Below, piece after piece: positions 7,901 to 63,992 of a stretch of DNA of 64,000 nucleotides. The notes under the pieces were generated by a model that made no database searches, was not told the origin of the DNA, and saw only the letters and a program-made list of their open reading frames with translations. The DNA is from Parcubacteria group bacterium GW2011_GWA2_40_143 (GTDB lineage Bacteria; Patescibacteriota; Minisyncoccia; UBA9983): contig LBYH01000001.1 of assembly GCA_000996035.1 (NCBI GenBank), positions 21,676 to 85,675 on the forward strand, in the 5' to 3' direction. The translations under genes were made by a program, and so were the position numbers. Every line of letters begins with the position of its first letter. Position 1 is the stretch's first letter.

Positions 7901-8711
7901 TTGCTACACCTAAGGCACCTCCATTATTAGTATTTTTAGCATTATCGCTTTGCTCTGTGAGGCTGGAAAGATTGGCATTGGCCCAACCAGAAAAAACAGT
8001 TGTGCTATTTCCGTCAGGCAACGCGGTGGCGATAGCTGTCACTACAAGGGTATTATCTACGGTCGTAATGGCGCCGGGTATAGAACCGCTGTTATCCGCT
8101 ACTGCTTCAACCCCACCAGCTGTCACATCCCATGGATCTCCAGTGGTGATAACTCCACTGTACGCGGATATTCTTGCGAATTGATGGTCGCCGGAATCTC
8201 CCAAACTGGGGTTGCCTTGCGTTCCGTTATATCTTGACCAAAAGGCCGTAAGGCGAGTGCCGGCTGTGCCAGCCACGCCGGCGGTTTGTGGAGAATTGGT
8301 AACTTCTGTCCATGTTCCGCCACCTTGATTGGTAATAGAAACCGCTTGTGCTCCTGTCTCAACAAAAAGAAGCAAGATATCATCTGTTTGAATTCCTGAC
8401 GGCAAGGCAGGAGTGATTGCGGCAGCGCCGGCAGCAAAAGTTCCATTGGCAATCCATACTGGCGCCGTGGCCGCGCGCGCTTCTTCAATTTTCCACCCCT
8501 CTTTCAAATTTCTTAACGAAGTAAACTTATCAACAACATTATCGTCTTGCGACAAACGCCATGCGCGGTCTACGATATTGCCGGTCTTAATATATCCTTC
8601 AATCGCGCCAGACAACATATAAAAAGGAATATTAGAAAACACCACGCCAAAAATCACCAAAACAATGGCGGAGTTGCGGAAAAATTTTAATAATTTTTTA
8701 ACTATTTTCAT
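1974..8711 (-). CDS. Giant (2245 aa) Thr/Ser/Gly/Ala-rich cell-surface protein with an N-terminal membrane anchor and repeated Ig-like/IPT/FN3-like modules
   Basis: Single uninterrupted 6.7-kb ORF. An N-terminal transmembrane helix is present. Repeated protein modules are visible in the translation: two copies of a roughly 210-aa TTPPTPDPMTFA...SGTTSAP block, and two or more copies of an ITGT(N/R)FG / GGNHFG IPT/TIG-like block. The composition is strongly biased towards T/S/G/A. Confidence 0.7.
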   Translation of the reverse strand: MKIVKKLLKFFRNSAIVLVIFGVVFSNIPFYMLSGAIEGYIKTGNIVDRAWRLSQDDNVVDKFTSLRNLKEGWKIEEARAATAPVWIANGTFAAGAAAITPALPSGIQTDDILLLFVETGAQAVSITNQGGGTWTEVTNSPQTAGVAGTAGTRLTAFWSRYNGTQGNPSLGDSGDHQFARISAYSGVITTGDPWDVTAGGVEAVADNSGSIPGAITTVDNTLVVTAIATALPDGNSTTVFSGWANANLSSLTEQSDNAKNTNNGGALGVASGEKVTAGNYGATAVTVSTNTYKAMMSIALKPAPPPADTTPPTPDPMTFASAPSNTSASQIDMTATTATDATTPPVSYYFALDTTSCVVANIGAGAADSGWQAGTTYSDIGLDVNKCYGYKVKARDSVGTPNETGYSGITTLYTSANTPSAPTVGSPTETTLVITNNENGNPLSNPTTSFAVQVTTADANWNGKWVDATGNASVSEVWLTDTQLTSLTVNGLTGGTLYNFQSKARNEDGDQTALSTAGSGTTSAPSYITTISNFVTAEPSNATIAPGASALVDSFGLQTDGSTDTVTAATIGIAAGMGQYIQTVAITNDGDTVTYCSATPSGDSASLSTCGIPVSITNTQFKIKLTAKAHGSMPVPPGASYAITATVTGFTSGNATQAGTDSGSATMTLDNLSPNGATSVSGTAGDTANTINWTASNSADFNTTSGSVVLRWASGTAGSEVPAEGSAYSAGNTITTATVACVISSTASAVQSKIDGTGGSAGCTTTALTNGQAYTYKVFSRDTNGNYDVGVAIGTFTPAATPPNATSFTNSTESGLNNLGARVGQTIVITGTNFGADPGAANRSTATNNVKVGTYQIPTANVTAWSAASITFNIPSAITVYGNNLTVTANSQADTTPLSFKVYPDITSISPSGVGEAKEGDTVTITGTRFGTTQGTNKVTIDGVAATISTWGDTSIQAVVPSAINDANNSVTVVAYQGTEGDNTLSDNSAGFIILPKITSWPGGDAAKENDSITFGGNHFGATAGTIDFVGGFGAAVPATGGITWSDTSITVTVPTTLSDSIYLGDIRITRNSDSKTGLAYSADGFRILPRIISLTPNTGPNGQSTTIAGDHLCQTGACPSAVTFNTTPDDGNDVKWGTANATVTGIPTHIEIIANAPTLTNGGYSVTVTTGGGSPYTSNGLTFTIANDTTPPTPDPMTFATAPSNTSATQIDMTATTATDATTPPVSYYFALDTTACVGANVGIGAADSGWQAGTTYSDTGLSVNKCYGYKVKARDNAGTPNETGYSGITTLYTSANTPTAPAVGSPTETTLVITNNENGNPLSNPVTNFAVQVTTADANWNGKWVNALGNASVTEVWLTDTQLTSLTINGLTAGTLYDFQSKAKNEDGDQTGLSTAGSGTTSAPPQVTAASSGTQTVNLDSGATGQYVGAAFTFQQTSGSADTITALTISEAGTVNANANLSANAGIRYESGVATCAYNGTETLVSDTFDVTTDKMTLSGLSIPVTVGSNYTCVYVVFDIAMGAVGGQAIDLEITSSTDFTLQNGTTKAGTYPVQLSGSTTIRPNVTSYDNISEAVLNNLGARNGQNITITGAGFGTVCGSISIQVEGTTLTCNNANNTTISATIPSTQVTTYGGTAASGKGLLATVGGTQDDARRDFYIYPEVTNIPTQAREADNINIDGKRFGVTEGAVNFIGNFGDILVPAVDVTWSDTAITVVVPTSIADNVYLGDIKITRAADTGSKEDNAYDSNGFRVLPKITEFNPVNPAVGDNVEIIGNHLCQAGAASCPGALDADNKITFYNAVDATLLNTWANGDSSTVGVNVKVPTGAASGNVVVKSNGYDSNALNLTLLSNTPSNPSVLDQFKNSGYTDSISVGGAASSTTIYFQMTMQASVSGGTLYPQIEAKAVGVAFTNAVTAEGTGQAGPGPATGQVSTVLSTNTQYHWQARVCHNKGGTHTSACDGTGDYPSDWVSFGGNTDPNDVDFYIDATAPAITTSCPMHGSLTAGGATIIWYLTDAMSSTFTKQVQYSTTTNFTSSVCSQGSGNETCGAPSSGYNSDPQQIILTGLSPDTVYYYRARSKDEAGNETSKGYGLGGDTSCTFTTSKAETRTTEFFVTSKQTALNQSDGQYSQTFTAQIPESGYNIKSAFVEITGVFSTDSAPPSQVTVQVNSATAATYTVGTATGATTPFAIIHEVSASDLNIATPSNPTNSNTLKVTVVDASTNITALSAKIVVTYYHTPVQ
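4521..5150. repeat. Internal direct repeat, copy A of a roughly 630-bp duplicated segment inside the giant gene
   Basis: Roughly 85-90% nucleotide identity to 7165-7795 by eye. Long runs are shared, for example ccattccagtt(g/a)gcatcagcagtagtaacctgcaccgc and agagggtttccattttcgttgttggtaataacaagagtggtttcagtcgg. Confidence 0.7.
7165..7795. repeat. Internal direct repeat, copy B (about 2.64 kb from copy A, same orientation)
   Basis: Same as copy A. The translated copies are roughly 90% identical at the protein level. Confidence 0.7.
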
Positions 8712-9254: not shown

Positions 9255-10202
9255 TTATTCCTTATATTCTTTCACATAATTATACACCTTTTCTGAAATA
9301 TCTTTAATGATTTCTTTTGCCTTTTGTTCGGTTTCATCTTTTATCATCACCGTAAGAATGTATGGACGATCCTTCTCATAAACAATACCGGAATCAAGAT
9401 ATATTTTTTTATCCTCGTCCACGCCAATCTTGTGCGAGAAGAGAATATCTTGAGGTAGACCACTTTGAATATAATTATAAAATGACGATTGCGATAAATA
9501 TGAAAGCAGTTTTTGCGAGTTATCTTCGTTGGCATAAGAAGCAGAATACAACGCTCTTACTATAACTGAATATCTTTTAGCGCTTAAACTTCCATTAGTT
9601 TCCAAGAAACTATCTAATCCTATATGACTATAAACATCTTCTATTTCTTCCATCTCAAGATTTCGTACCAAAATAAAATGCGCGGTGTTATCTGAGTCCA
9701 CCAATGAACGCTTGATTAAATCTTCTATGGTATGTGTTGTATTAGTTTTTTCTTTGTATAGAGTACCGAACTTATCGTCCTTATCCGTCGACATCAAAAC
9801 CAGTTCATTCGTCCATTTCCAATTTCCTTTTTCAATTTTTTTTGCCACCGCCATTGCAACGGGTACTTTAAGGAGCGATGCCGGGTAAAATTCAGCGTCT
9901 TTATTCATTGAAATATTGGAACCCGTTGGCAAGTATTCAAAATAAATAGAAATATTCGGATCAGCTTCGTATTTGTCATTCAAATAATCGCGAAGTGGCT
10001 GAAAATTAATAATCAAATCTTCCTGTTTAATAAATTCTCTCGCGGGATTTAATAAATTATATTTGTCTTTCACAACATCGGAAGATTTTGGCTTGAAAAA
10101 ATAAGCAAAAAAGTTGCTGGAAATCAAAATGAGAATAATAAAATACAAAAAATAATTTATTTTATTATTTTTTGTATTTATATCTTGTCTATTTCTTTTC
10201 AT
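9255..10202 (-). CDS. Membrane-anchored class A beta-lactamase-like serine hydrolase
   Basis: 315 aa with an N-terminal transmembrane helix. SxxK (ASLLK), SDN (DSDNTAHFIL, compare TEM SDNTAANLL) and a KIG in the KTG position. Confidence 0.6.
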   Translation of the reverse strand: MKRNRQDINTKNNKINYFLYFIILILISSNFFAYFFKPKSSDVVKDKYNLLNPAREFIKQEDLIINFQPLRDYLNDKYEADPNISIYFEYLPTGSNISMNKDAEFYPASLLKVPVAMAVAKKIEKGNWKWTNELVLMSTDKDDKFGTLYKEKTNTTHTIEDLIKRSLVDSDNTAHFILVRNLEMEEIEDVYSHIGLDSFLETNGSLSAKRYSVIVRALYSASYANEDNSQKLLSYLSQSSFYNYIQSGLPQDILFSHKIGVDEDKKIYLDSGIVYEKDRPYILTVMIKDETEQKAKEIIKDISEKVYNYVKEYKE

Positions 10203-15489: not shown

Positions 15490-15516
15490 TTGTCAAGGTC
15501 AGACCTTGGCAAGTCA

Positions 15517-21270: not shown

Positions 21271-23955
21271 TTAAAACTGTGATAAATTCTTTCTTCTCCG
21301 AAAGAAGAGTTTGCGCAATTCTTCGGCAACGATTATTGACGCGGCTACCGGAATGATTAAAAGCCATTCTGAAAATTCCAACGGCACGGTGCGAAGAATT
21401 TTCTGCATGACCGGCATGTATATTGCGATTACCTGAAGTATAATAACCGCAAAAGTCGCGCCAACCAAATATTTATTTGAAAACCAATCCATCTTAAATA
21501 TTGATTTATTTTCCGAGCGGCAATTCCACACATTGAACCATTGAAAAATCGCGAGTGTTGTGAGTGATATTGTCCACGCTTTGGCGATATCAGTTTCAAA
21601 GTATCGGCTGAATAAGAAAAGTGTTCCTATCATCATAGGCAACGCCATAATAATCATTCTTTGAATTATCAATGAATCAATAATATATTTTTTAGGATGT
21701 TCAAATTTTCCGGACAAAAGTCCTTCTTCTTTCGGTTCCATAGCTAAGGCCATAACAAGAAACCCGTCAGTTACGAAATTAAGCCAAATAATTTGTGCCG
21801 CGAGAATCGGCAACGGATACCCCAAAAACAAAGCGACAGAAATCACCAGCACTTCTCCGGCGCTTGTTGAGAAAAGATACAAGATAACCTTTTTTATCGT
21901 CTTATATATGCTTCGGCCTTCCTCAATTGCCGAAATAATGCTCCCAAAATTATCATCAAGCAATACAATATCCGAAGCTTCTTTCGCAACCTCCGTGCCG
22001 ATTTTACCCATGGAAACTCCGAGATCAGCGGCCACAAGCGACGGCGCGTCGTTAACTCCATCTCCTGTCATGGCGATAATTTCACCTCTCTTTTTGTAAG
22101 CGTTGATAATCTGCATTTTGTGCTCAGGCGTCACTCTGGCGAAAACCGTTGTGTTTGCCAGTTTATCGGCAAGCTCAGCGTCATACATCTTTTCAATTTC
22201 ATCTCCGGTTAGCACCGTATCTCCTTCTTGGTATATGCCCGCCTCCTTGGCAATGGCGCGGGCGGTTATCTTATGGTCGCCGGTTATCATTACCACCCTG
22301 ATTCCCGCCTCTTTCGCTCGCTGCATTGCTCCTTTAACTTCCGGCCGGAGAGTATCTTGCATGCCGAAAAATCCGACAAAAGACAGCGAATGAATTGATT
22401 CCTTTTTTAATTGTTTTGGCGCTTCATCACAAGCCGCGACCGCGATAACGCGAAGCCCTTCCTCCGACATGCCGGTAAATATTTTCTCAAGTTCTTCTTT
22501 CTCATCCGTTTCGAGAGGATGATTCTTTCCTCCGCGCCTAATATCAACGCAAAGCGAAAGTATCTTCTCCGGCGCGCCGGTAACGATTAAGAGATGGCCT
22601 TTTTCCGTCTGATGCAGAGTGGCGCGATACTTCATCTTATAATCAAAAGGAATTTCTGAAATAAGAGGCGATTCTCTCAAGAGATCTTCTTTGCGAAAGC
22701 CCGCTTTCTCGGCAAACACAAGCATGGCGGCTTCAGTGGGATCTCCGGCTATGCGCCACTCCTTTGCTTCTTCAACATAAAAGAGACGAGCGCCGGCAAC
22801 AAGCGAAGTGGTTTTTCCCAAATACAACAATTCATCATGCTTTGCCACACTGACAAGATTCTTATCAAACTTGATTTCCCCCTTAGGTTCATATCCGATA
22901 CCGCCAACTTCAAATAATTTGCCGCCCGCCCACGCTTTGCGTATGACAAGTTCGTTTTTAGTAATGGTTCCCGTCTTGTCCACCGCAATCACTCGCGCTT
23001 GTCCGAGGGCTTCCACGGCTTGAAGCCTCTTTACAAGCGCGTTCCGCTTTGACATGCGCCAAACGCCAGTCGCAAGTACAAGTGTCATAACAATTGGCAG
23101 CCCTTCGGGAATAATTGAGACGGAAAGCGAAACAACGGTCGTGAACATTTCTTTGGCGGAATGACCGAAAAGTATGCCGGCAGTGAAAAGAATCGTACCA
23201 ATGACAACGACGGCGACAATAATTGCCCGCGAGAGATGGCGGATGTTTGCCTTGAGCGGAGTTTCCGTATCAATGGCGGAAATTTGTTTAGCGATACCGC
23301 CAATCACAGTGCCAAGCCCCGTTGCCACCACGATTGCCCGGCCATTACCGGAAACAATATGCGTACCTTTCCAAACCATATTCTTTTGCTCCGCTGTAGG
23401 AAGATTATCTTTTTCAAGAACATTAGTATTTTTATGTATCGGCTCGGATTCTCCGGTCAAAGAAGCCTCGTCTATTTTTAAACTTTGAGAGAAAATAACC
23501 CGAGCATCGGCTGGAATTCGTTCTCCCTCCTGAAGAATGAGAATGTCGCCGGGAACCACCTCCATATCCGGAATGATAAATTCTTTTCCATCACGAAGGA
23601 CCGTCGCGCTTGTTGCCACGAATTTTTTGAGAGCGAGGAGAGTATTTTGGGCTTTACCTTCTTGAATAACACCGATAATGGCGTTAAACAAAAGTACGGT
23701 GAGAATAATCAAGCCGTCCATGGTCTCGCCCATAGCAAAAACAACCGCGCTGGCGACAAGAAGGATATAAATAAGCGGACTCTGGAACTGACTTAAAAAG
23801 AGTCTTCGCTTGGATCGCGGCTTTTCTTCCAGAAGACTATTCCCGCCGTATTGCTTAAGACGCTCATCTGCCGCTTCAAGCGAGAGCCCCCAATCCGAAC
23901 TCTCAAGCTTCTCAAATATTTTTTCTAATGTGAACGAGTACCATGGTCGCGCCAT
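21271..23955 (-). CDS. P2-type cation-transporting P-type ATPase (Ca2+/Mg2+-ATPase-like)
   Basis: 894 aa. DKTGTITKNE, MITGDHKITA, MTGDGVNDAPSL, 10 predicted transmembrane helices. Confidence 0.9.
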   Translation of the reverse strand: MARPWYSFTLEKIFEKLESSDWGLSLEAADERLKQYGGNSLLEEKPRSKRRLFLSQFQSPLIYILLVASAVVFAMGETMDGLIILTVLLFNAIIGVIQEGKAQNTLLALKKFVATSATVLRDGKEFIIPDMEVVPGDILILQEGERIPADARVIFSQSLKIDEASLTGESEPIHKNTNVLEKDNLPTAEQKNMVWKGTHIVSGNGRAIVVATGLGTVIGGIAKQISAIDTETPLKANIRHLSRAIIVAVVVIGTILFTAGILFGHSAKEMFTTVVSLSVSIIPEGLPIVMTLVLATGVWRMSKRNALVKRLQAVEALGQARVIAVDKTGTITKNELVIRKAWAGGKLFEVGGIGYEPKGEIKFDKNLVSVAKHDELLYLGKTTSLVAGARLFYVEEAKEWRIAGDPTEAAMLVFAEKAGFRKEDLLRESPLISEIPFDYKMKYRATLHQTEKGHLLIVTGAPEKILSLCVDIRRGGKNHPLETDEKEELEKIFTGMSEEGLRVIAVAACDEAPKQLKKESIHSLSFVGFFGMQDTLRPEVKGAMQRAKEAGIRVVMITGDHKITARAIAKEAGIYQEGDTVLTGDEIEKMYDAELADKLANTTVFARVTPEHKMQIINAYKKRGEIIAMTGDGVNDAPSLVAADLGVSMGKIGTEVAKEASDIVLLDDNFGSIISAIEEGRSIYKTIKKVILYLFSTSAGEVLVISVALFLGYPLPILAAQIIWLNFVTDGFLVMALAMEPKEEGLLSGKFEHPKKYIIDSLIIQRMIIMALPMMIGTLFLFSRYFETDIAKAWTISLTTLAIFQWFNVWNCRSENKSIFKMDWFSNKYLVGATFAVIILQVIAIYMPVMQKILRTVPLEFSEWLLIIPVAASIIVAEELRKLFFRRRKNLSQF

Positions 23956-29717: not shown

Positions 29718-29769
29718 AACTTCATTTTACAATAATCTTGAATTAATATAAAGGTAATAGTCGAACACA

Positions 29770-29796
29770 AAGCCACCCGATCGGGTGGCTTTGTGT
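29770..29796. terminator. Perfect 11-bp hairpin CAAAGCCACCC-GATC-GGGTGGCTTTG. Possible terminator between tRNA-Gln and the island.
   Basis: Inverted repeat read directly from the sequence. No strong T-tract, so a terminator role is tentative. Confidence 0.3.
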
Positions 29797-29874
29797 TCTG
29801 AATACTGCTCTCAGCAGGTATGCAATTTAAGTATAGATCTTCCTGATTAGCTCTATCTTTGAGCTAGCTCAAGT

Positions 29875-29948
29875 TGGCTGCCAGACTAGGATTCGAACCT
29901 AGATAACAGGTTTCAGAGACCTGTGTCCTACCATTAGACGATCTGGCA
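29875..29948 (-). tRNA. tRNA-Gln (anticodon CTG), CCA encoded
   Basis: The reverse complement folds as a cloverleaf. Acceptor stem TGCCAGA/TCTGGCA (7 bp), D-arm GTCT-AATGGTA-GGAC, anticodon stem CAGGT/ACCTG with loop CTCTGAA, T-arm CTAGG-TTCGAAT-CCTAG, discriminator G, then CCA. Confidence 0.85.
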
Positions 29949-36621: not shown

Positions 36622-37707
36622 CTACTCTCCCGCCAACTGACCGCAAGCGGCAAGAATATCTTCCCCGAAAGAAACACGCTGAGTTACGGATACGCCAAGC
36701 TTTTTAAGCGTGTCAAAAAAAACGTCTCGCTTAGCCTTGAGCGATGGTTTATATGTTCCGCCAGTATCATGATATTTAATGAGATTTACATGATACAGAT
36801 GCCCTTTCATTAGCTTGGCAAGTTCATACGCGTCTTCTCTGCTGTCATTTACCCCATCTATAAGCAGATACTCAAACATTACTTTTCGGTTTGTTTTTTT
36901 AATGTAATTATCTATGGCGGTCATAAGAGCGGCGATCGGATAAACTTTATTTATAGGCATAAGTTTTGTTCTTATTTCGTCATTGGCGCCGTGCAGAGAA
37001 ACAGCGAGATTTATTTGCAATTTTTCTTCCGCAAATTTCTTTATGGCCGGCGTTATGCCGCAAGTGGAAATTGAGATATGCCTTATGCCAAGATTAAAGC
37101 CGTCTTTGTCGTTTAATATTCTTGCAGCTTCCATTACATTATCGTAATTTAAAAATGGCTCGCCCATGCCCATAAAGACAATGTTGTCTATGGCATTGCG
37201 ACCATCAATGCGACCATCAAGGGGAGTCCTTGATATCAAGGACTCCCCTTGATGGTTTTCAGACTTCAAATACCGCGCAAAAAATAAAACTTGTTCAACA
37301 ATCTCCTCGCTTGCAAGATTGCGTTTATAGCCTGCCTTGCCGGTGGCGCAAAAACCGCAAGCCATGGCGCAACCGGCCTGAGAAGATATACATACGGTAT
37401 TGCGGCCGACCACTTGTTCTGAGCCGGTCGCAAGATGCTTCATCAGCACGGTTTCTATTTTTAAGCCGTCACTCGTCTCAAACACCACTTTCACGGAATC
37501 ACCTTTTTTTGATTCAAGAGTTTTTATGTTTTTAAGACACGAAAAAGCAAATTTTTCATCCAGACTGTCGCGCAAATCTTTCGGCAAAAATTTTATATCT
37601 TGCCAGCTCGTTGCCAAATCCACAAACACCGCCTTCTTAATTTCTTTAAGACGATAAGGTTTGTGGCCATTTTCAGCCAAAAAATTTTCTATGTCTTTAA
37701 TATTCAT
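36622..37707 (-). CDS. rlmN: Radical-SAM 23S rRNA/tRNA adenine-C2 methyltransferase RlmN, carrying an in-frame REP-derived insertion
   Basis: CAMACGFCATG (Cx3Cx2C), GMGEPFLNYDNV, C-terminal CGQLAG. The segment HQGESLISRTPLDGRIDGRNA is encoded by two abutting palindromic repeat units at 37213-37256. Confidence 0.9.
   Translation of the reverse strand: MNIKDIENFLAENGHKPYRLKEIKKAVFVDLATSWQDIKFLPKDLRDSLDEKFAFSCLKNIKTLESKKGDSVKVVFETSDGLKIETVLMKHLATGSEQVVGRNTVCISSQAGCAMACGFCATGKAGYKRNLASEEIVEQVLFFARYLKSENHQGESLISRTPLDGRIDGRNAIDNIVFMGMGEPFLNYDNVMEAARILNDKDGFNLGIRHISISTCGITPAIKKFAEEKLQINLAVSLHGANDEIRTKLMPINKVYPIAALMTAIDNYIKKTNRKVMFEYLLIDGVNDSREDAYELAKLMKGHLYHVNLIKYHDTGGTYKPSLKAKRDVFFDTLKKLGVSVTQRVSFGEDILAACGQLAGE
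37213..37256. repeat. REP-like copy 1: two abutting, oppositely oriented units (CCATCAAGGGGAGTCCTTGAT + ATCAAGGACTCCCCTTGATGG) inside the rlmN coding sequence, in frame
   Basis: Same 21-bp core as the 51-54 kb cluster. The ORF stays continuous across it. Confidence 0.8.
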
Positions 37708-40666: not shown

Positions 40667-40863
40667 CAAAGTATTTAATCGCTAAATCAATATTCAAACA
40701 AGGATTTTAAGTATTTTAAATTTCAAAACAAATAAGTGGCTGAAATTTACAAAGTTCCTAATAGGACGACAATTAGTACTTCTCGGCTTAATCCGTTGCC
40801 GGACTTACACCTAAAGCCTATCAAGGTTGTCATCTTCAACCTGTCTTAGATTCCTAATCTTGG

Positions 40864-40905
<42 letters not shown>

Positions 40906-41031
40906 CAACATAGCTACCCAGCAATGCTCCTGGCGGAACAACTGGTACACCAGAGGTTAGTCCACTCTGATCCTCTCGTACAAAGAGCAGATCTCCTCAA
41001 GAATCAAACGCCTGCAGCAGATAGGAGACCA

Positions 41032-41066
<35 letters not shown>

Positions 41067-41136
41067 TCTTTTTAATTGGCGAACAGCCAAACCCTTGGGA
41101 CCTTCTCCAGCCCCAGGATAAGATGAGCCGACATCG

Positions 41137-41967
41137 TATATTTCTCCATTATTACTAATGGTATGGACTATATCTTCTTCCTTCTGCGATAATCACTCGC
41201 AGTTAGGAGTTGGCGTATTAGCGTTTCTCATTTGAAACACTCTCAGCTTGCGCTTCAGTCTCTACGGGGTCATAACTAACTTATATTTCATTGATGGCGC
41301 AACAAAAGGTTTAATAATATCCATAAAACCTTTTATGCTTTCCTTCAAGATTCTAATACGATGATATTTCTTATCTCTATTAAGACGAGCATTTATGCCC
41401 AATTTTCTTAAGCAATTCAATAAAATCTTTTGATCGTTTAAACTGAATTGTTGAGTATTAAGATAGATATCGCCATCTCTACATTTACTCCCATCATCCA
41501 TATACCAAATGGCTATGGAAATAGGATCAATGTCAATGTCTTTTGGTATTATTTTGCGTCCGTTTTTATAAAACATATAATAAAGATTAGTTAAATCTTT
41601 ATGTTGTTTAGTAAAAAACCTACACGCACGACGATTATCACCAGACACTCTTTCCTTTGGTGCAGATTCACAAATTCTTTTTAATTTTTTGAATTTGTAA
41701 TCAACATAATCTTTCGCTTTTATAGAATGATTTATTTCTAAAAAAGCGTCTGATCTGCCGGGCATGATTCTCACGTACCCGTCTCCCAAGAGAGATCCGA
41801 TTATAATCGATCGTTCAAGTTTAGTTAGACTTCCCACGGTATTGTCCATGATTATATTATATCATGGAGTTCACCGTTATAAGCCAAATATTTTAATCAA
41901 AACATATTCTCCTAAATATGCTTTAACCCAGACTGCGCGATCTCTCGCGCCGCACCCCGATATGTTA
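41137..41967 (-). mobile_element. Group I intron in 23S rRNA domain V (insertion near E. coli position about 2585-2593), encoding a homing endonuclease. Boundaries are good to about 10 nt.
   Basis: The exon sequence …GGCGGAGTTCGGCACCT is followed by non-rRNA sequence. The rRNA resumes at CGATGTCGGCTCATC, and these two exon ends are contiguous in E. coli 23S. The element carries a LAGLIDADG ORF. Confidence 0.75.
41262..41849 (-). CDS. LAGLIDADG homing endonuclease (double-motif), intron-encoded
   Basis: 195 aa. IIGSLLGDGYV and AIWYMDDGS motifs. Same orientation as the 23S rRNA. Confidence 0.85.
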   Translation of the reverse strand: MDNTVGSLTKLERSIIIGSLLGDGYVRIMPGRSDAFLEINHSIKAKDYVDYKFKKLKRICESAPKERVSGDNRRACRFFTKQHKDLTNLYYMFYKNGRKIIPKDIDIDPISIAIWYMDDGSKCRDGDIYLNTQQFSLNDQKILLNCLRKLGINARLNRDKKYHRIRILKESIKGFMDIIKPFVAPSMKYKLVMTP

Positions 41968-42505
41968 AGGTGCCGAACTCCGCCGTCGCTATGGACGCTT
42001 GGGCGGAACTAGCCTGTTATCCCCGGAGTAGCTTTTATCCGTTAATCTTCCACCGCTTCTAAAGCGAATGGTCGGTTCACTATGTTCTGCTTTCGCATCT
42101 GCTCGACATGTCCGTCTTGCAGTTAAGCCGGCTTTTGCCATTGCGCTATCAGCGCGGTTTCCATCCGCGCCTAGCCGACCTTTAAACTCCTCCGTTACTT
42201 TTTAGGAGGAAATCGCCCCAATTAAACTACCCACCAGGCACTGTCTCCTTGCGTTTTTGCCGCAAAGGTTAGAATTTAGCTTTTTAAAGAACGGTATTTC
42301 ACTGGCGGCTCCATGTCACCCAAAAGCGACACTTCAAAGCCTCCCGTCTATGCTACGCATTAAAAATCTAAACCCAATACCAAGCTATAGTAAAGCTTCC
42401 GGGGTCTTTTCGTCTAGCTGCAGGTAACCGGCATCTTCACCGGTATTGTATTTTCACCGGGCTACTTCCCGAGACAGTTCTCCAGTCGTTACACCATTCG
42501 TGCGC

Positions 42506-42571
<66 letters not shown>

Positions 42572-44000
42572 AGGGCTTATACAGTCCAGCTTCCGCCTTG
42601 CGGCGAAAACCCTCCGTATTTGACCTTCTCGCATTGGTCAGGTGTCACCCCCTATACATCCTCTTACGAGTTCGCAGGGAGCTGTGTTTTTGATAAACAG
42701 TCGCCAGAGAAACTTTCGCTGCGGCCCGCCTTGCGGCGGGCAGACCTTATCCCGAAGTTACGGTCGCTTTTTTGCCGAGTTCCTTGGGAAGAACTCACCC
42801 GTTCGCCTTGGTCTTCTCGACCTATCCACCTGTGTCGGTTTTCGGTACGGTTTCCGTATTTCTTTCCCCGCTAAAGCGGGGCTTAGAAGCTTTTCTTGGA
42901 AGACTGCTTTGCTAAATTTATTCCGCTATAAACGGAATATTTCATTTGCGCTTGGAATTTCCCTTGCGGGCGCGGGCGGATTTTCCTGCCTGCGTTCCTT
43001 ACGCCAATAACGCAAATCCAGTAATGCGCCTAGCATACTAATCTTCGTCACTCCATTAAAAATACGGAAGTCACGGAATATTAACCGTGTGTCCATCGGC
43101 TGCGGCTTTCGCCATTGCCTTAGGCCCGACTAACCCTTGGTTGATCGTCATTGCCAAGGAAACCTTGGATTTTCGGCGTCAGCCGTTTTCAGGCTGATTG
43201 TGGTTACTTGTGCCAACATTCTTACTTCGCAACGCTCCACCGTGCCTCACGACACAGCTTCACAGCAGATGCGAACACTCTCCTACCATGTTCCGCTAAA
43301 AGCGGAACATCCTCACCTTCGGTACTCTACTTAGCCCCGATTATTTGCGGTGCAAGATCTCTTAACGAGTGAGCTGTTACGCATTCTTTAAAAGATGGCT
43401 GCTTCTAAGCCAACTTCCTCGTTGTCTGAGAAATTTCACCTCCTTAAGTGCACTTAGTAGAAATTTAGGGACCTTAGATTGAGATCTGGGCTCTTTCCCT
43501 TTTGACTAGTGAAGCTTAGCCCTCACAGTCTAACTGTCTGCCAATTACTTCCGGTATTCGGAGTTTGATAGGATTGACGAGGTTTCCCCCTGTTCAATCC
43601 TTCCAGTGCTCTACCCCCGGAAGGTAAGACAAACGCTAGCCCTAAAGCTATTTCGGAGAGAACCAGCTATTACCAGGTTCGATGAGCTTTTCACTCCATA
43701 CCACAGGTCATCCGATAGTTTTGCACGGCTAACCGGTTCGGACCTCCTCCCGCATTTCTGCGGAATTCATCCTGCCCATGGCAAGTTCACCTGGCTTCGG
43801 GTCTAATTTGTAATACTTTTGATCGCCCTTTTAAGACTCGCTTTCGCTGTGTCTCCGTCCTCTCGGACTTAGACAGCAACACAAATTAACTCGTTGGCTC
43901 ATTCTTCAATAGGCACGCCGTCGTCCACGACTTGCGTCGAGACTTCGACTCCTTGTAGACATATGGTTTCAGGTTCTATTTCAACGCCCTCATCGGGCTA

Positions 44001-44037
<37 letters not shown>

Positions 44038-44660
44038 ATCTTAAAGAGTATTTAGCCTTGCCGGTTAGTTCCGGCAGATTCCTCCGAGCCATTCGTGTCT
44101 CGAAGTACTTAAGAATAATAACTGAAAGTATAATCATGTTTTCGTTTACAGGGCTATTACCTTCTTTGGCTCCGCTTTCCAACGGATTCAGCTAACAAGA
44201 TTAAAACTCACTTAGAATTGCTTCATTCGCTATTACCTTGCAACCCCTTACTTAATAAAAAGTAAGGTTTAGGCTATTCCCATTTCGCTCGCCGCTACTC
44301 AGGGAATCACATTGTTTTCTTTTCCTCCCGGTACTGAGATGTTTCACTTCCCGGGGTTTCCTTCCCGCCAAAGGCGGGATAACACCGATTTACGGTGTTG
44401 GGTTTCCCCATTCGGAGATCTCCGGATCAAAGGCCGCTCAGCGCCTCCCCGAAGCTTATCGTAGCTAAGCCACGTCCTTCATCGTCTCTTTAAGTCTAGG
44501 CATCCACCATACGCCCTTATTCCTATTAGGAAATTTATAAACTTCCTTTCTAGATTCACTCGTAACCACTTTTTTGTTTTGGTTTAAATACAAATTACCT
44601 ACATTTTGCTTGATTGAATATTGATTTTTCAAAATGCAGTCTTTCCGAAAAATTCCAAAT

Positions 44661-51432: not shown

Positions 51433-51469
51433 CCCCCACCATCAAGGACTCCCCTTGATGGTGGGGGTA
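51433..51469. repeat. REP-like palindromic element, copy 2 (CCCCCCACCATCAAGG-ACTCC-CCTTGATGGTGGGGG), inside an approximately 80-nt MITE-like unit at 51402-51483
   Basis: Perfect 15-bp arms. The core is shared with 7 other sites. Confidence 0.8.
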
Positions 51470-52422: not shown

Positions 52423-52478
52423 AATATTATACCACACCCACTGTCCAAATATGCCATCCAAGGGTAACCCTTGGATGA
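52423..52478. repeat. REP-like palindrome, variant copy 3 (…CATCCAAGGGTAACCCTTGGATG… with outer arms CCACACCC/GGGTGTGG), inside a second MITE-like unit at 52382-52498 that shares the flanks of copy 2
   Basis: The flanks TTATCACACCAAATTTTCTAAAACAACCCC (5') and TAACTTTTCTAGCTTT (3') are repeated at 51402 and 52382. Confidence 0.7.
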
Positions 52479-52572: not shown

Positions 52573-52621
52573 GAAAAGTTTCCTTGCTTAGCACCACCAT
52601 CAAGGGGAGTCCTTGATGGTG
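52573..52621. repeat. REP-like palindrome, copy 4, with 22-bp arms (TTGCTTAGCACCACCATCAAGG-GGAGT-CCTTGATGGTGGTGCTAAGCAA), overlapping the 3' end and stop of the RAYT gene
   Basis: The transposase C-terminus LLSTTIKDSP* is encoded by the repeat. An approximately 25-nt stretch (AAAAATAYTCAGGAAAAGWYTCCTTG) is duplicated at 52562-52586 and 52676-52700 on either side of it. Confidence 0.8.
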
Positions 52622-53286
52622 GTGCTAAGCAAAAGCCAATCGTTTATAAAATCATCAAAATCTTTGCGATTTGAAAAATATTCAGGAAAAGACTCCTTGT
52701 TAATAATCTTTCCCTCCGGCCTGTTACCGTTTTCGCTATAATCAAAATAACTTGAATAAGAATACTCGTTCAAAAAAGAACTAGCTGTGTTTTTATTTTT
52801 AATGCCACTTTCTTTCCATTCCGGCTCTATTAGTTTAACTGGATTTAAATGAATATAGGCAAAAAGATATTTTAAATACTCATCATTATCCGCATGAGTT
52901 GACTTAAAAACCCCTTGGAATAAAGCCCCCGTCCTATTATATCTCTTATTAAAATACATTGAGTATCCTGTAGCCAGCTTGCCCATAAATTTACTGATGC
53001 CTTTTTCTTTTTTCTCTTTAACAAGAAGATGGAAATGGTTAGGCATCAAACAATAAGCTCCAATATCAACAAGAGAGTCTTTTTTATTTATGTTTAATAT
53101 CTTCATCAAGGACTCCCCTTGATTTATGAGGTTGCTTATGTGCACAACATCAACATTGTTGGAAATATAAAGCAAAACAAGAAACCTTAAATAATCGGCT
53201 TTGTCCGAAAAAATATCTCTTTTTTCGGTGCCACGATTGTAGATGTGATAATATTCACCAACAGAAAAAACTATTTTTCTTTCCAT
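52600..53286 (-). CDS. IS200/IS605-family Y1 (HUH) transposase, REP-associated tyrosine transposase (RAYT)-like
   Basis: 228 aa. EYYHIYNRGTEKRDIF (N-terminal beta-strand block), HUH motif YCLMPNHFHLLV, RYNRTGALFQGVFKS…YLFAYIHLNPVK (compare RAYT …GIWQRRFWEH…YIHINPLKHG). Flanked by inverted REP copies (copy 6 lies 14 nt upstream, copy 4 overlaps the stop). A partial REP copy is in-frame inside the gene. Confidence 0.8.
   Translation of the reverse strand: MERKIVFSVGEYYHIYNRGTEKRDIFSDKADYLRFLVLLYISNNVDVVHISNLINQGESLMKILNINKKDSLVDIGAYCLMPNHFHLLVKEKKEKGISKFMGKLATGYSMYFNKRYNRTGALFQGVFKSTHADNDEYLKYLFAYIHLNPVKLIEPEWKESGIKNKNTASSFLNEYSYSSYFDYSENGNRPEGKIINKESFPEYFSNRKDFDDFINDWLLLSTTIKDSP
53104..53123. 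repeat. REP-like partial copy 5 inside the transposase gene, in-frame (encodes NQGESL)
   Basis: CATCAAGGACTCCCCTTGAT. Translated on the minus strand it gives LINQGESLM, the same peptide core as the rlmN insertion. Confidence 0.7.
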
Positions 53287-53300
53287 GCTTTTATTTTAAG

Positions 53301-53335
53301 ACACTTATCCCCAACCATCAAGGACTCCCCTTGAT
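53301..53335. repeat. REP-like palindrome, copy 6 (CCCCAACCATCAAGG-ACTCC-CCTTGATGGTTGGGG), immediately upstream of the RAYT gene
   Basis: 15-bp perfect arms. Opposite core orientation to copy 4. Confidence 0.8.
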
Positions 53336-53354
53336 GGTTGGGGATGTTATAAAT

Positions 53355-54083: not shown

Positions 54084-54136
54084 AGTACTTACATATTAAA
54101 TAATTCCTTATCCTGCGTCAAACCTCGTCATCAAGA

Positions 54137-54211
54137 CCATCAAGGGGAGTCCTTGATGGTGGGGAGTTTTCATTCTTAGTATGTCCGTATCCAAGGACTG
54201 TCCTTGGATAC
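54137..54211. repeat. REP-like copies 7 (ACCATCAAGGGGAGTCCTTGATGGT, 54137-54161) and 8 (variant GTATCCAAGGACTGTCCTTGGATAC, 54187-54211) in the intergenic region downstream of the surface-protein gene
   Basis: Palindromes read directly from the sequence. Confidence 0.75.
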
Positions 54212-63625: not shown

Positions 63626-63922
63626 TTTTAAAAATAGAATTTAACTTAAAATAAACGATTTTTAAGGTCTTTTTCAACGACCTTGTTGTCAACATTTCCC
63701 CAAGATAATGCTCTGATTAACCATGAGCAAGATTTTAAGGTTATACAAAATAAAGAAAAAAAGACGTTTAAAACTCTCATACTAACACTGATTTTGGGCG
63801 GTTTGGGCGCCCAAGTCCATCCATTACTGTTTTTCATCTTTCCTCTCCTTTATATAATAAGGAAAAAAATAAAGTACGATTTTATCTGATTCAATAGTAA
63901 ACCAAATTATTTAAATAAGCAA

Positions 63923-63992
63923 GAAATAAAGTGGCGTAAATTAAAATTTTGAGACGCGTCTCAAAATTTTAATTTACGCCACTTTATTTCTT
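63923..63992. repeat. 70-bp perfect palindrome (AGAAATAAAGTGGCGTAAATTAAAATTTTGAGACGC|GCGTCTCAAAATTTTAATTTACGCCACTTTATTTCT)
   Basis: Read directly. 35-bp arms with no loop, centred on GACGCGTC. Confidence 0.8.

Follow-up and report, generated by a model that had tools for sequence, protein, structure and literature searches.

A palindromic repeat doublet read in frame within rlmN of a Parcubacteria genome and the transposase-associated hairpin family around it

How does a perfect palindrome come to lie within a housekeeping gene without breaking its reading frame? The question is raised by a 64,000-nt stretch of DNA (the window, positions 21,676 to 85,675 of contig LBYH01000001.1) from Parcubacteria group bacterium GW2011_GWA2_40_143, in which rlmN, encoding a radical-SAM methyltransferase of rRNA (23S) and tRNA, contains a 44-nt palindrome composed of two units resembling repetitive extragenic palindromic (REP) sequences. 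REP elements and their REP-associated tyrosine transposases (RAYTs) are mostly treated as extragenic elements in Proteobacteria. The answer that we favor, and consider probable, is that a head-to-head doublet of the genome's own REP-type hairpin family, similar to the REP doublets forming hairpins known as REPINs, entered rlmN at a loop where it is tolerated, leaving RlmN functional.

The palindrome in rlmN and the state of its product

The palindrome is formed by two arms, 37213-37234 and 37235-37256, each consisting of ACC plus a 19-nt unit, ATCAAGGGGAGTCCTTGAT, that makes a hairpin of its own (7-bp stem, 5-nt loop GGAGT; Table 1). A first-pass annotation, made from the sequence of the window, had described two abutting REP units at this place within an unbroken frame. 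Both points hold, since the arms are perfectly complementary and the 361-aa open reading frame (ORF) is open across the insert, encoding SENHQGESLISRTPLDGRIDGRNAIDN between the Cx3Cx2C motif and GMGEP. Folded as single-stranded DNA, the palindrome yields one hairpin at -23.6 kcal/mol (z = -9.1), while the insert as mRNA forms a 20-bp helix, with the 111-nt stretch at -49 kcal/mol (z = -7.3). Two of the three frames of the doublet are closed, which means that only the one open register can survive within a gene. The same single open frame explains why the intact type-A doublets, which were read as DNA at two sites only, in the window and in a second genome (L002), are read in one frame. The adjacent 12-nt tandem duplication, previously taken as a sign of slippage at the insertion, is also borne out: it spans the junction between element and flank and adds four codons while keeping the frame.

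The insert is absent from the closest relative. The closest orthologue is a 342-aa protein (P0002; its DNA is L001), with 91.6% nucleotide identity over the gene, and the two rlmN genes differ by one indel only. This indel of 57 nt is located at the insert (its placement is ambiguous by ~6 nt, MAFFT putting the gap at 37192-37248), and the empty site in L001 is clean and scarless. This is a filled/empty polymorphism between close relatives, as expected of a mobile element. With a synonymous divergence (dS) of 0.25 between the two alleles, about five neutral changes are expected in 44 nt. Despite this, both units match the family consensus at 19/19 positions, which favors a recent gain or continuing homogenization. 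The event was most likely a gain in the lineage of the window and not a loss in the sister L001. In the scenario that we favor, the doublet would have landed in the loop between the helix that follows the Fe-S cluster and the GMGEP strand, the element giving ~45 nt and the slippage duplication across the junction the remaining 12 nt of the 57 nt (19 residues); only the open register of the doublet would have survived in the gene.

Perfect palindromes can cause assembly errors, and the continuous frame might on that account be an artifact of assembly or sequencing, such as a palindrome-induced chimera. We regard this as excluded, since the same protein and DNA recur in independent assemblies. 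The collection records the exact 361-aa protein in 32 blocks, at least 24 contigs that were read (from ENA, JGI, and NCBI assemblies) show the same frame, and one independent assembly, L206, is identical to the window across 2,086 nt. Moreover, related genomes have comparable in-frame palindromes at the same site.

As for the host protein, the gene is intact and under selection. Its product scores 330.8 bits on TIGR00048, the curated RlmN equivalog (cut-off 290), and the cysteines of the cluster together with the two catalytic ones (C106, C113, C117, C120, and C355) are invariant in the orthologue alignment. The ratio of nonsynonymous to synonymous substitution rates (dN/dS) between rlmN of the window and the L001 allele is 0.20. 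The AlphaFold2 model of the 361-aa protein has a mean predicted local distance difference test score (pLDDT) of 81.9, and superimposes on solved RlmN structures with template modeling (TM) scores of 0.86 (6fz6) and 0.84 (5hr7, from Escherichia coli). Residues 153-169 are modeled as a coil with pLDDT < 50, flanked by a helix (133-149) and a strand (175-181), and in the alignment to 6fz6 the insert corresponds to an 18-residue gap. Judging from selection, equivalog score, cysteines, and predicted fold, the enzyme still looks functional, the extra residues being predicted to form a low-confidence or disordered surface loop on an intact RlmN fold. The insertion may thus have been neutral for RlmN. 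The earlier proposal that the segment is a tolerated surface-loop insertion agrees with the gap in 6fz6, the low-confidence coil, and the selection acting on the gene.

The hairpin family of the window and its transposase

The two units in rlmN are members of a repeat family dispersed in the window. The 16-mer core of the unit has seven exact copies where 0.43 are expected, and the total of eight matches, including one with three mismatches, was reached in 0/100 shuffles. For the looser core CAAGG-N5-CCTTG, 11 copies contrast with an expectation of 0.025. Besides the pair in rlmN, there are five exact copies of the unit, at 51441, 52599, 53105, 53317, and 54139. Within the 64-kb window, five of the 11 core matches are intergenic, two are ambiguous, and four fall in confident ORFs: two in rlmN, one in an ORF of 1134 aa, and one in a transposase gene. 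Most copies form the inner part of longer perfect hairpins. The outer stems of these hairpins resemble one another in sequence (CCCC[C/A]ACC...GGT[G/T]GGGG) and show compensatory changes. The outer stems are therefore part of a longer unit, and we set aside the idea that they are target DNA. No RNA family in Rfam matches any of the hairpin sites. The hairpin in the 1134-aa ORF shares its exact core with unit 1 of the insert found in rlmN of a different genome (L005). A search for relatives of this ORF with a 400-aa fragment gave no match, probably because low-complexity sequence swamped the word index, and local tblastn gave none that was usable.

The repeat is associated with a transposase gene, the only Y1 transposase gene in the window, which is bracketed by inverted copies of the unit (53317 on the minus strand and 52599 on the plus strand). 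The protein matches Pfam Y1_Tnp with 44.6 bits (cut-off 23) and belongs to a family with at least 7,835 members in Patescibacteria, 120 of which (P0121-P0240) were analyzed; nearly all of these 120 listed homologues have the HUH and Tyr motifs. The association extends to other genomes. Transposase homologues with 46-55% identity are carried by 14 of 80 loci fetched with the exact 19-mer, and 10 of the 11 homologous genes from other genomes whose flanks were examined have units upstream and/or at their 3' end. The Y1 transposase would move the units as single-stranded hairpin DNA.

The copy inside the transposase ORF is of a different nature. The first-pass annotation had noted that a partial REP copy in this gene encodes the same NQGESL peptide as the rlmN insert. 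The peptide is indeed encoded there, as part of NQGESLM (53105-53123), but the copy is a complete 19-nt unit that lacks only the ACC/GGT extension. Nor is it an insertion: the segment containing the motif, x-G-x-[ST]-[LF], has a constant length across the 120 homologues, and the unit overlies this conserved motif. The two ends of the motif covary, Q-L being found in 48 members, E/K-F in 41, and mismatched combinations in three (Fisher p ~1.5e-22). Such covariation is expected of a 5-bp stem (CAAGG/CCTTG, GAAGG/CCTTC, or AAAGG/CCTTT). The residue preceding L/F is S, T, A, or P, the amino acids with NCC codons, in 83% of members, against a background of 17%. On a motif-masked tree, the state switches between Q-L and E/K-F at least eight times, which shows that the association is not one inherited change. 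At the DNA level, the 7-bp stem is perfect in 13/13 QGxxL homologues for which the motif DNA was available, with the loop either way round (QGESL or QGLPL). No E-F or K-F transposases that would allow a reading of the codons were found in fetched loci, viral contigs, plasmids, or phages. These patterns suggest that the transposase ORF contains a hairpin conserved as nucleic acid, whose covariation points to autoregulation or to a protected master copy. To judge from the peptides, the loop variants QGRSL, QGSTL, and QGETL of other transposases would match loop classes of the rlmN inserts of other genomes. In one of these genomes (L004, 8444-9839), a Y1 transposase gene lies directly upstream of rlmN and is accompanied by a separate hairpin family (ACTTGGACATT c AATGTCCAAGT), with one copy at 9313 just upstream of the transposase gene, another at 8444, and two in frame inside the gene, each of the latter encoding LGHSMSK.

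The exact 19-mer is found in more than 116 metagenome stretches, with a flank consensus, AAW...WTT, that prolongs the stem. In other genomes, it is read in frame in genes whose identity was confirmed by Pfam, encoding a MiaB-like methylthiotransferase, RecR, PurD, LigA, MnmA, and ComEC (loci L097, L108, L118, L130, L135, L152, and L155). RecR carries the unit in both loop orientations, in two species. Tandem arrays of four same-orientation units, spaced by 31-45 nt and with the same short flanks, are seen in three stretches (L093, 1914-2040; L116, 1885-2011; L156, 1429-1555).

Table 1. Coordinates of rlmN, its insert, the transposase gene, and the hairpin copies in the window
Feature	Position	Strand	Remarks
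rlmN, host gene of the insertion	36622..37707	-	361-aa ORF
Perfect palindrome of 44 nt, REPIN-like head-to-head doublet	37213..37256		22-nt arms, 100% complementary, no spacer
Unit 1, ATCAAGGGGAGTCCTTGAT	37216..37234	+	exact match
Unit 2, identical 19-mer reversed	37235..37253	-	exact match
12-nt tandem duplication (CATTGCGACCAT / CAATGCGACCAT)	37194..37217		copies 37194-37205 and 37206-37217, 92% identity
57 nt (19 codons, HQGESLISRTPLDGRIDGR) missing from closest orthologue	37198..37254	-	pairwise gene alignment with L001
Y1 (IS200/RAYT-like) transposase gene, 228 aa	52600..53286	-	presumed mobilizer of the units; ~15 kb from rlmN
Unit in 22-bp-stem hairpin, 3' end of transposase gene	52584..52632	+	unit at 52599-52617; gives last codons and TGA stop (TIKDSP*)
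Unit inside transposase ORF, encodes NQGESLM	53105..53123	-	overlies conserved x-G-x-[ST]-[LF] motif
Unit in 17-bp-stem hairpin directly upstream of transposase start	53307..53345	-	core at -47 from start codon
Intergenic unit copy, 15-bp-stem hairpin	51433..51467	-	
Intergenic unit copy, 10-bp-stem hairpin	54136..54160	+	
39-nt perfect hairpin, CAAGG-N5-CCTTG class, loop TTCAA	49601..49639		within 1134-aa ORF, encodes VTSLSRLNLDNEVS
Intergenic CAAGG-N5-CCTTG variant, loop TCAGA	15494..15508		
Intergenic CAAGG-N5-CCTTG variant hairpin (GTATCCAAGGAC t GTCCTTGGATAC)	54187..54211		
CAAGG-N5-CCTTG variant hairpin downstream of transposase gene	52455..52477		in doubtful 94-aa ORF

Recurrent filling of one RlmN loop across Patescibacteria

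What the first-pass annotation missed is that this loop is a recurrent hairpin site across the phylum. The spacing between cluster and GMGEP is 38 aa in 68/115 orthologues, and is longer by 4-26 aa in 42/115 orthologues from Patescibacteria. The segment is thus lineage-specific, as had been suspected, and a universal equivalent loop is ruled out by this baseline and by the empty site of L001. On a loop-masked tree (neighbor-joining and only indicative), filled and empty states are interleaved. All nine filled sites for which DNA was available are hairpins, with perfect stems of 7 to 26 bp that fall into at least five sequence classes. The L002 insert has 26-nt arms with the same stem as in the window and the loop ACCGT, and L003 has a single unit with an L002-type stem. 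A second stem class, ATGGCAAGG...CCTTGACAT, is found in L004 and L005, while L203 contains an unrelated 29-nt palindrome, TCCCCCTCGACATC c GATGTCGAGGGGGA, of a class with two members elsewhere in L003. The hairpins thus filling rlmN belong to families with several copies in their respective genomes. The insert in L207 is a truncated copy of the window's own doublet, and those in L208 and L209 have 8-bp stems. No hairpin is present at the empty sites of L001 and L204. A profile search of contigs with the RlmN alignment returned, among the matches listed, mostly distant phyla and no useful close relatives. RlmN has a second length-variable loop (seen in L005), and the absence of a palindrome there rules out that all RlmN indels are palindromic.

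This last contrast, and the hairpins with perfect stems at every filled site read as DNA, would also fit a hairpin that is itself useful in rlmN, either as an mRNA structure slowing translation or affecting stability or as a DNA site for the Y1 transposase, with different lineages having recruited different hairpins. The stable mRNA helix of the window's insert points the same way, and the hairpin that the transposase family conserves by covariation indicates that coding hairpins can be functional in these organisms. Nevertheless, we find this explanation quite improbable. The 68/115 orthologues with the 38-aa spacing, the sister strain among them, manage without a hairpin, the hairpins are copies of dispersed repeats and are not specific to rlmN, and mobile hairpins with a preferred target would yield the same pattern.

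Why the same loop should be filled again and again may have several explanations: site preference, re-targeting of an existing hairpin, or old inheritance accompanied by homogenization. The consensus empty site KKENQA (AAA GAA AAT CAA GCC in L204) holds ATCAAG, six of the seven bases of the unit stem. More generally, a loop of one conserved enzyme that houses at least five unrelated hairpin classes raises the question of how hairpin elements choose their targets.

Several observations weigh against the entry of a transposase-mobilized doublet, and are best considered together. Transposition has not been seen to occur, and the rlmN insert shows no evident target-site duplication of the kind that transposons leave. 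The sole NCBIfam match of the transposase, to the REP-associated tyrosine transposase (NF047646), scores 49.3 bits and is under the cut-off of 80, and only 7/106 distinct flank pairs have a GTAG/CGTC tag at a distance of up to 8 nt from the unit. In L002-L005, the rlmN hairpin is the sole CAAGG-N5-CCTTG unit in 8-21 kb. With this being so in four genomes, the recurrence is not easily accounted for by random insertion and subsequent tolerance. In PurD of another genome, 92 residues of the GARS_C domain, including the unit, match 92 positions of the profile. There is no net change in length here, and a conversion-like process may act alongside insertion. Finally, the RlmN of L207 is only 63% identical to that of the window, yet it shares the window's loop sequence and right-hand junction, and its doublet is better explained by common descent or by integration at a specific site than by a chance insertion in the recent past.

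These points bear on a second alternative, in which the rlmN hairpin is old and vertically inherited, has been kept perfect or updated to the repeat of each genome by gene conversion, template switching, or re-targeting, and has been precisely lost many times, including in the L001 lineage. The doublet and junction common to the window and L207 speak for it, as does the presence of extra residues at one loop in so many orthologues (the 42/115). In a clade with an ERYEK flank, both loops differ in concert at the peptide level (WQGETL..VKVSPC versus WQGLAL..VKARPC), and L202 resembles a decayed remnant at baseline length. REPs are, in addition, known targets for further insertions. Against this, the empty consensus KKENQx is common to many lineages within and outside the filled clades, which indicates that the empty state is ancestral. 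The unrelated hairpin classes at the site and the scarless empty allele of L001 are likewise difficult to reconcile with ancient presence, and we consider this alternative unlikely, if less so than a useful hairpin. The entry of a REPIN-like doublet of the genome's own family therefore remains the reading that we prefer for the window.

A broader proposal, which we put forward tentatively as a possibility short of a probable account, would link the transposase with the loops. Y1 transposases of Patescibacteria (the family of at least 7,835) may keep their presumed cognate hairpin in their own ORF, at the covarying motif (CAA..TTG, GAA..TTC, or AAA..TTT). Dispersed units, having the same sequence as this translatable master copy, would hence be readable in frame, and would land repeatedly in loops of housekeeping genes, guided perhaps by targeting or by microhomology to the native CAAG at the conserved Gln codon, the loop of rlmN between helix and GMGEP being the clearest hotspot. 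If true, this would represent a systematic, transposase-driven source of variation in protein loops in genomes with almost no intergenic space. The recurrent filling of the loop and the hairpin conserved in the transposase ORF, if confirmed, would connect the biology of a domesticated transposase with protein-sequence innovation.

Comparison with known palindromic elements

How unusual is the rlmN insert? The first-pass annotation had presented in-frame entry of REPs into coding sequence as an unusual route. Unusual it is, but it is not new, as in-frame REPs and REP dimers are known in other phyla (PMC3733652; PMC10969869). Opitutus, Thioalkalivibrio, and other bacteria have intragenic single REPs and dimers that encode 20-30 residues, in many cases within genes for replication and repair (PMC3733652), and the Rickettsia palindromic elements (RPEs) are in-frame palindromic elements as well (Ogata 2000, 2002, as reviewed in PMC10969869). 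As in these cases, the palindromes described here occur singly or as dimers, in frame in housekeeping genes, and lengthen the protein by ~10-30 residues, in regions presumed to be permissive, while leaving it active; the replication and repair hosts have their counterparts in LigA, RecR, and ComEC of other genomes. RPEs differ in being ~100-150 bp long, tagged with CGTC, and without a known dedicated transposase, whereas the present units are 19-25 nt, untagged, and associated with a transposase, the insert being a 44-nt doublet. The filling of one orthologous loop by several unrelated hairpin classes across a phylum is not described in the cited literature on RPEs and intragenic REPs.

The resemblance to REP/REPIN-RAYT systems is extensive. 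As in those systems, short hairpin units are strongly over-represented, inverted doublets form long hairpins, a Y1/HUH transposase gene is flanked by inverted copies of the unit, and unit variants differ among genomes with compensatory changes in the stems. A REP-transposase-REP arrangement has been described, e.g., for Pseudomonas and E. coli (PMC3116915, PMC5581495), and REPs are also known to supply stop codons to flanking ORFs (PMC3733652), which recalls the TGA of the transposase gene here. In contrast, the present units are without the GTAG/CGTC tag that defines REP superfamilies (PMC3733652), the transposase is under the curated RAYT cut-off, and the doublet is spacerless and only 44 nt long. 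Many copies are in coding sequence, in frame, and the transposase ORF holds a unit at a conserved motif. We found no report of REPs for Patescibacteria in the searched literature. With IS200/IS605 insertion sequences, the system shares a Y1 HUH transposase (Pfam Y1_Tnp) with small hairpins on either side, which makes a single-stranded-DNA mechanism plausible. It differs in that the flanking hairpins have their loops inverted relative to each other, both in the window and in most homologues, and that the hairpin is also found dispersed, unaccompanied by the gene. Among the ORFs adjoining the transposase gene, none of which was scanned for tnpB, no tnpB was noticed.

The rlmN insert, as the first-pass annotation stated it, adds one more case to a phenomenon already known. 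What is new is the combination of a class of untagged units and its divergent Y1 transposase, a recurrently filled enzyme loop, and a covarying ORF-internal hairpin, in Patescibacteria. It places a REP-like untagged family in ultra-compact genomes where intergenic space is scarce and units are translated as protein. For annotation, it accounts for a class of odd low-confidence loops in the proteins of these organisms.

Several minor features of the window and of the rlmN neighborhood complete the picture. An intergenic 72-nt perfect palindrome at the end of the window (63921-63992; 36-nt arms, no spacer) is unrelated in sequence to the CAAGG units, and a 36-nt perfect palindrome (29763-29798; 18-nt arms, no spacer) adjoins a tRNA gene (29878-29948). 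Next to rlmN, the lemA gene is split by an indel in one same-strain assembly (L205, from ~1836 on), in which rlmN is identical. Approximately 3 kb from rlmN, whose product modifies 23S rRNA, lies the 23S rRNA gene itself. The match to it (40755-44530, minus strand) extends over 3,776 nt, against 2,925 nt for the Rfam model, which leaves ~850 nt of extra sequence, and a 195-aa ORF (41262-41849, minus strand) is located inside the match. We take this extra sequence to resemble the intron-type insertions reported in rRNA genes of Patescibacteria.

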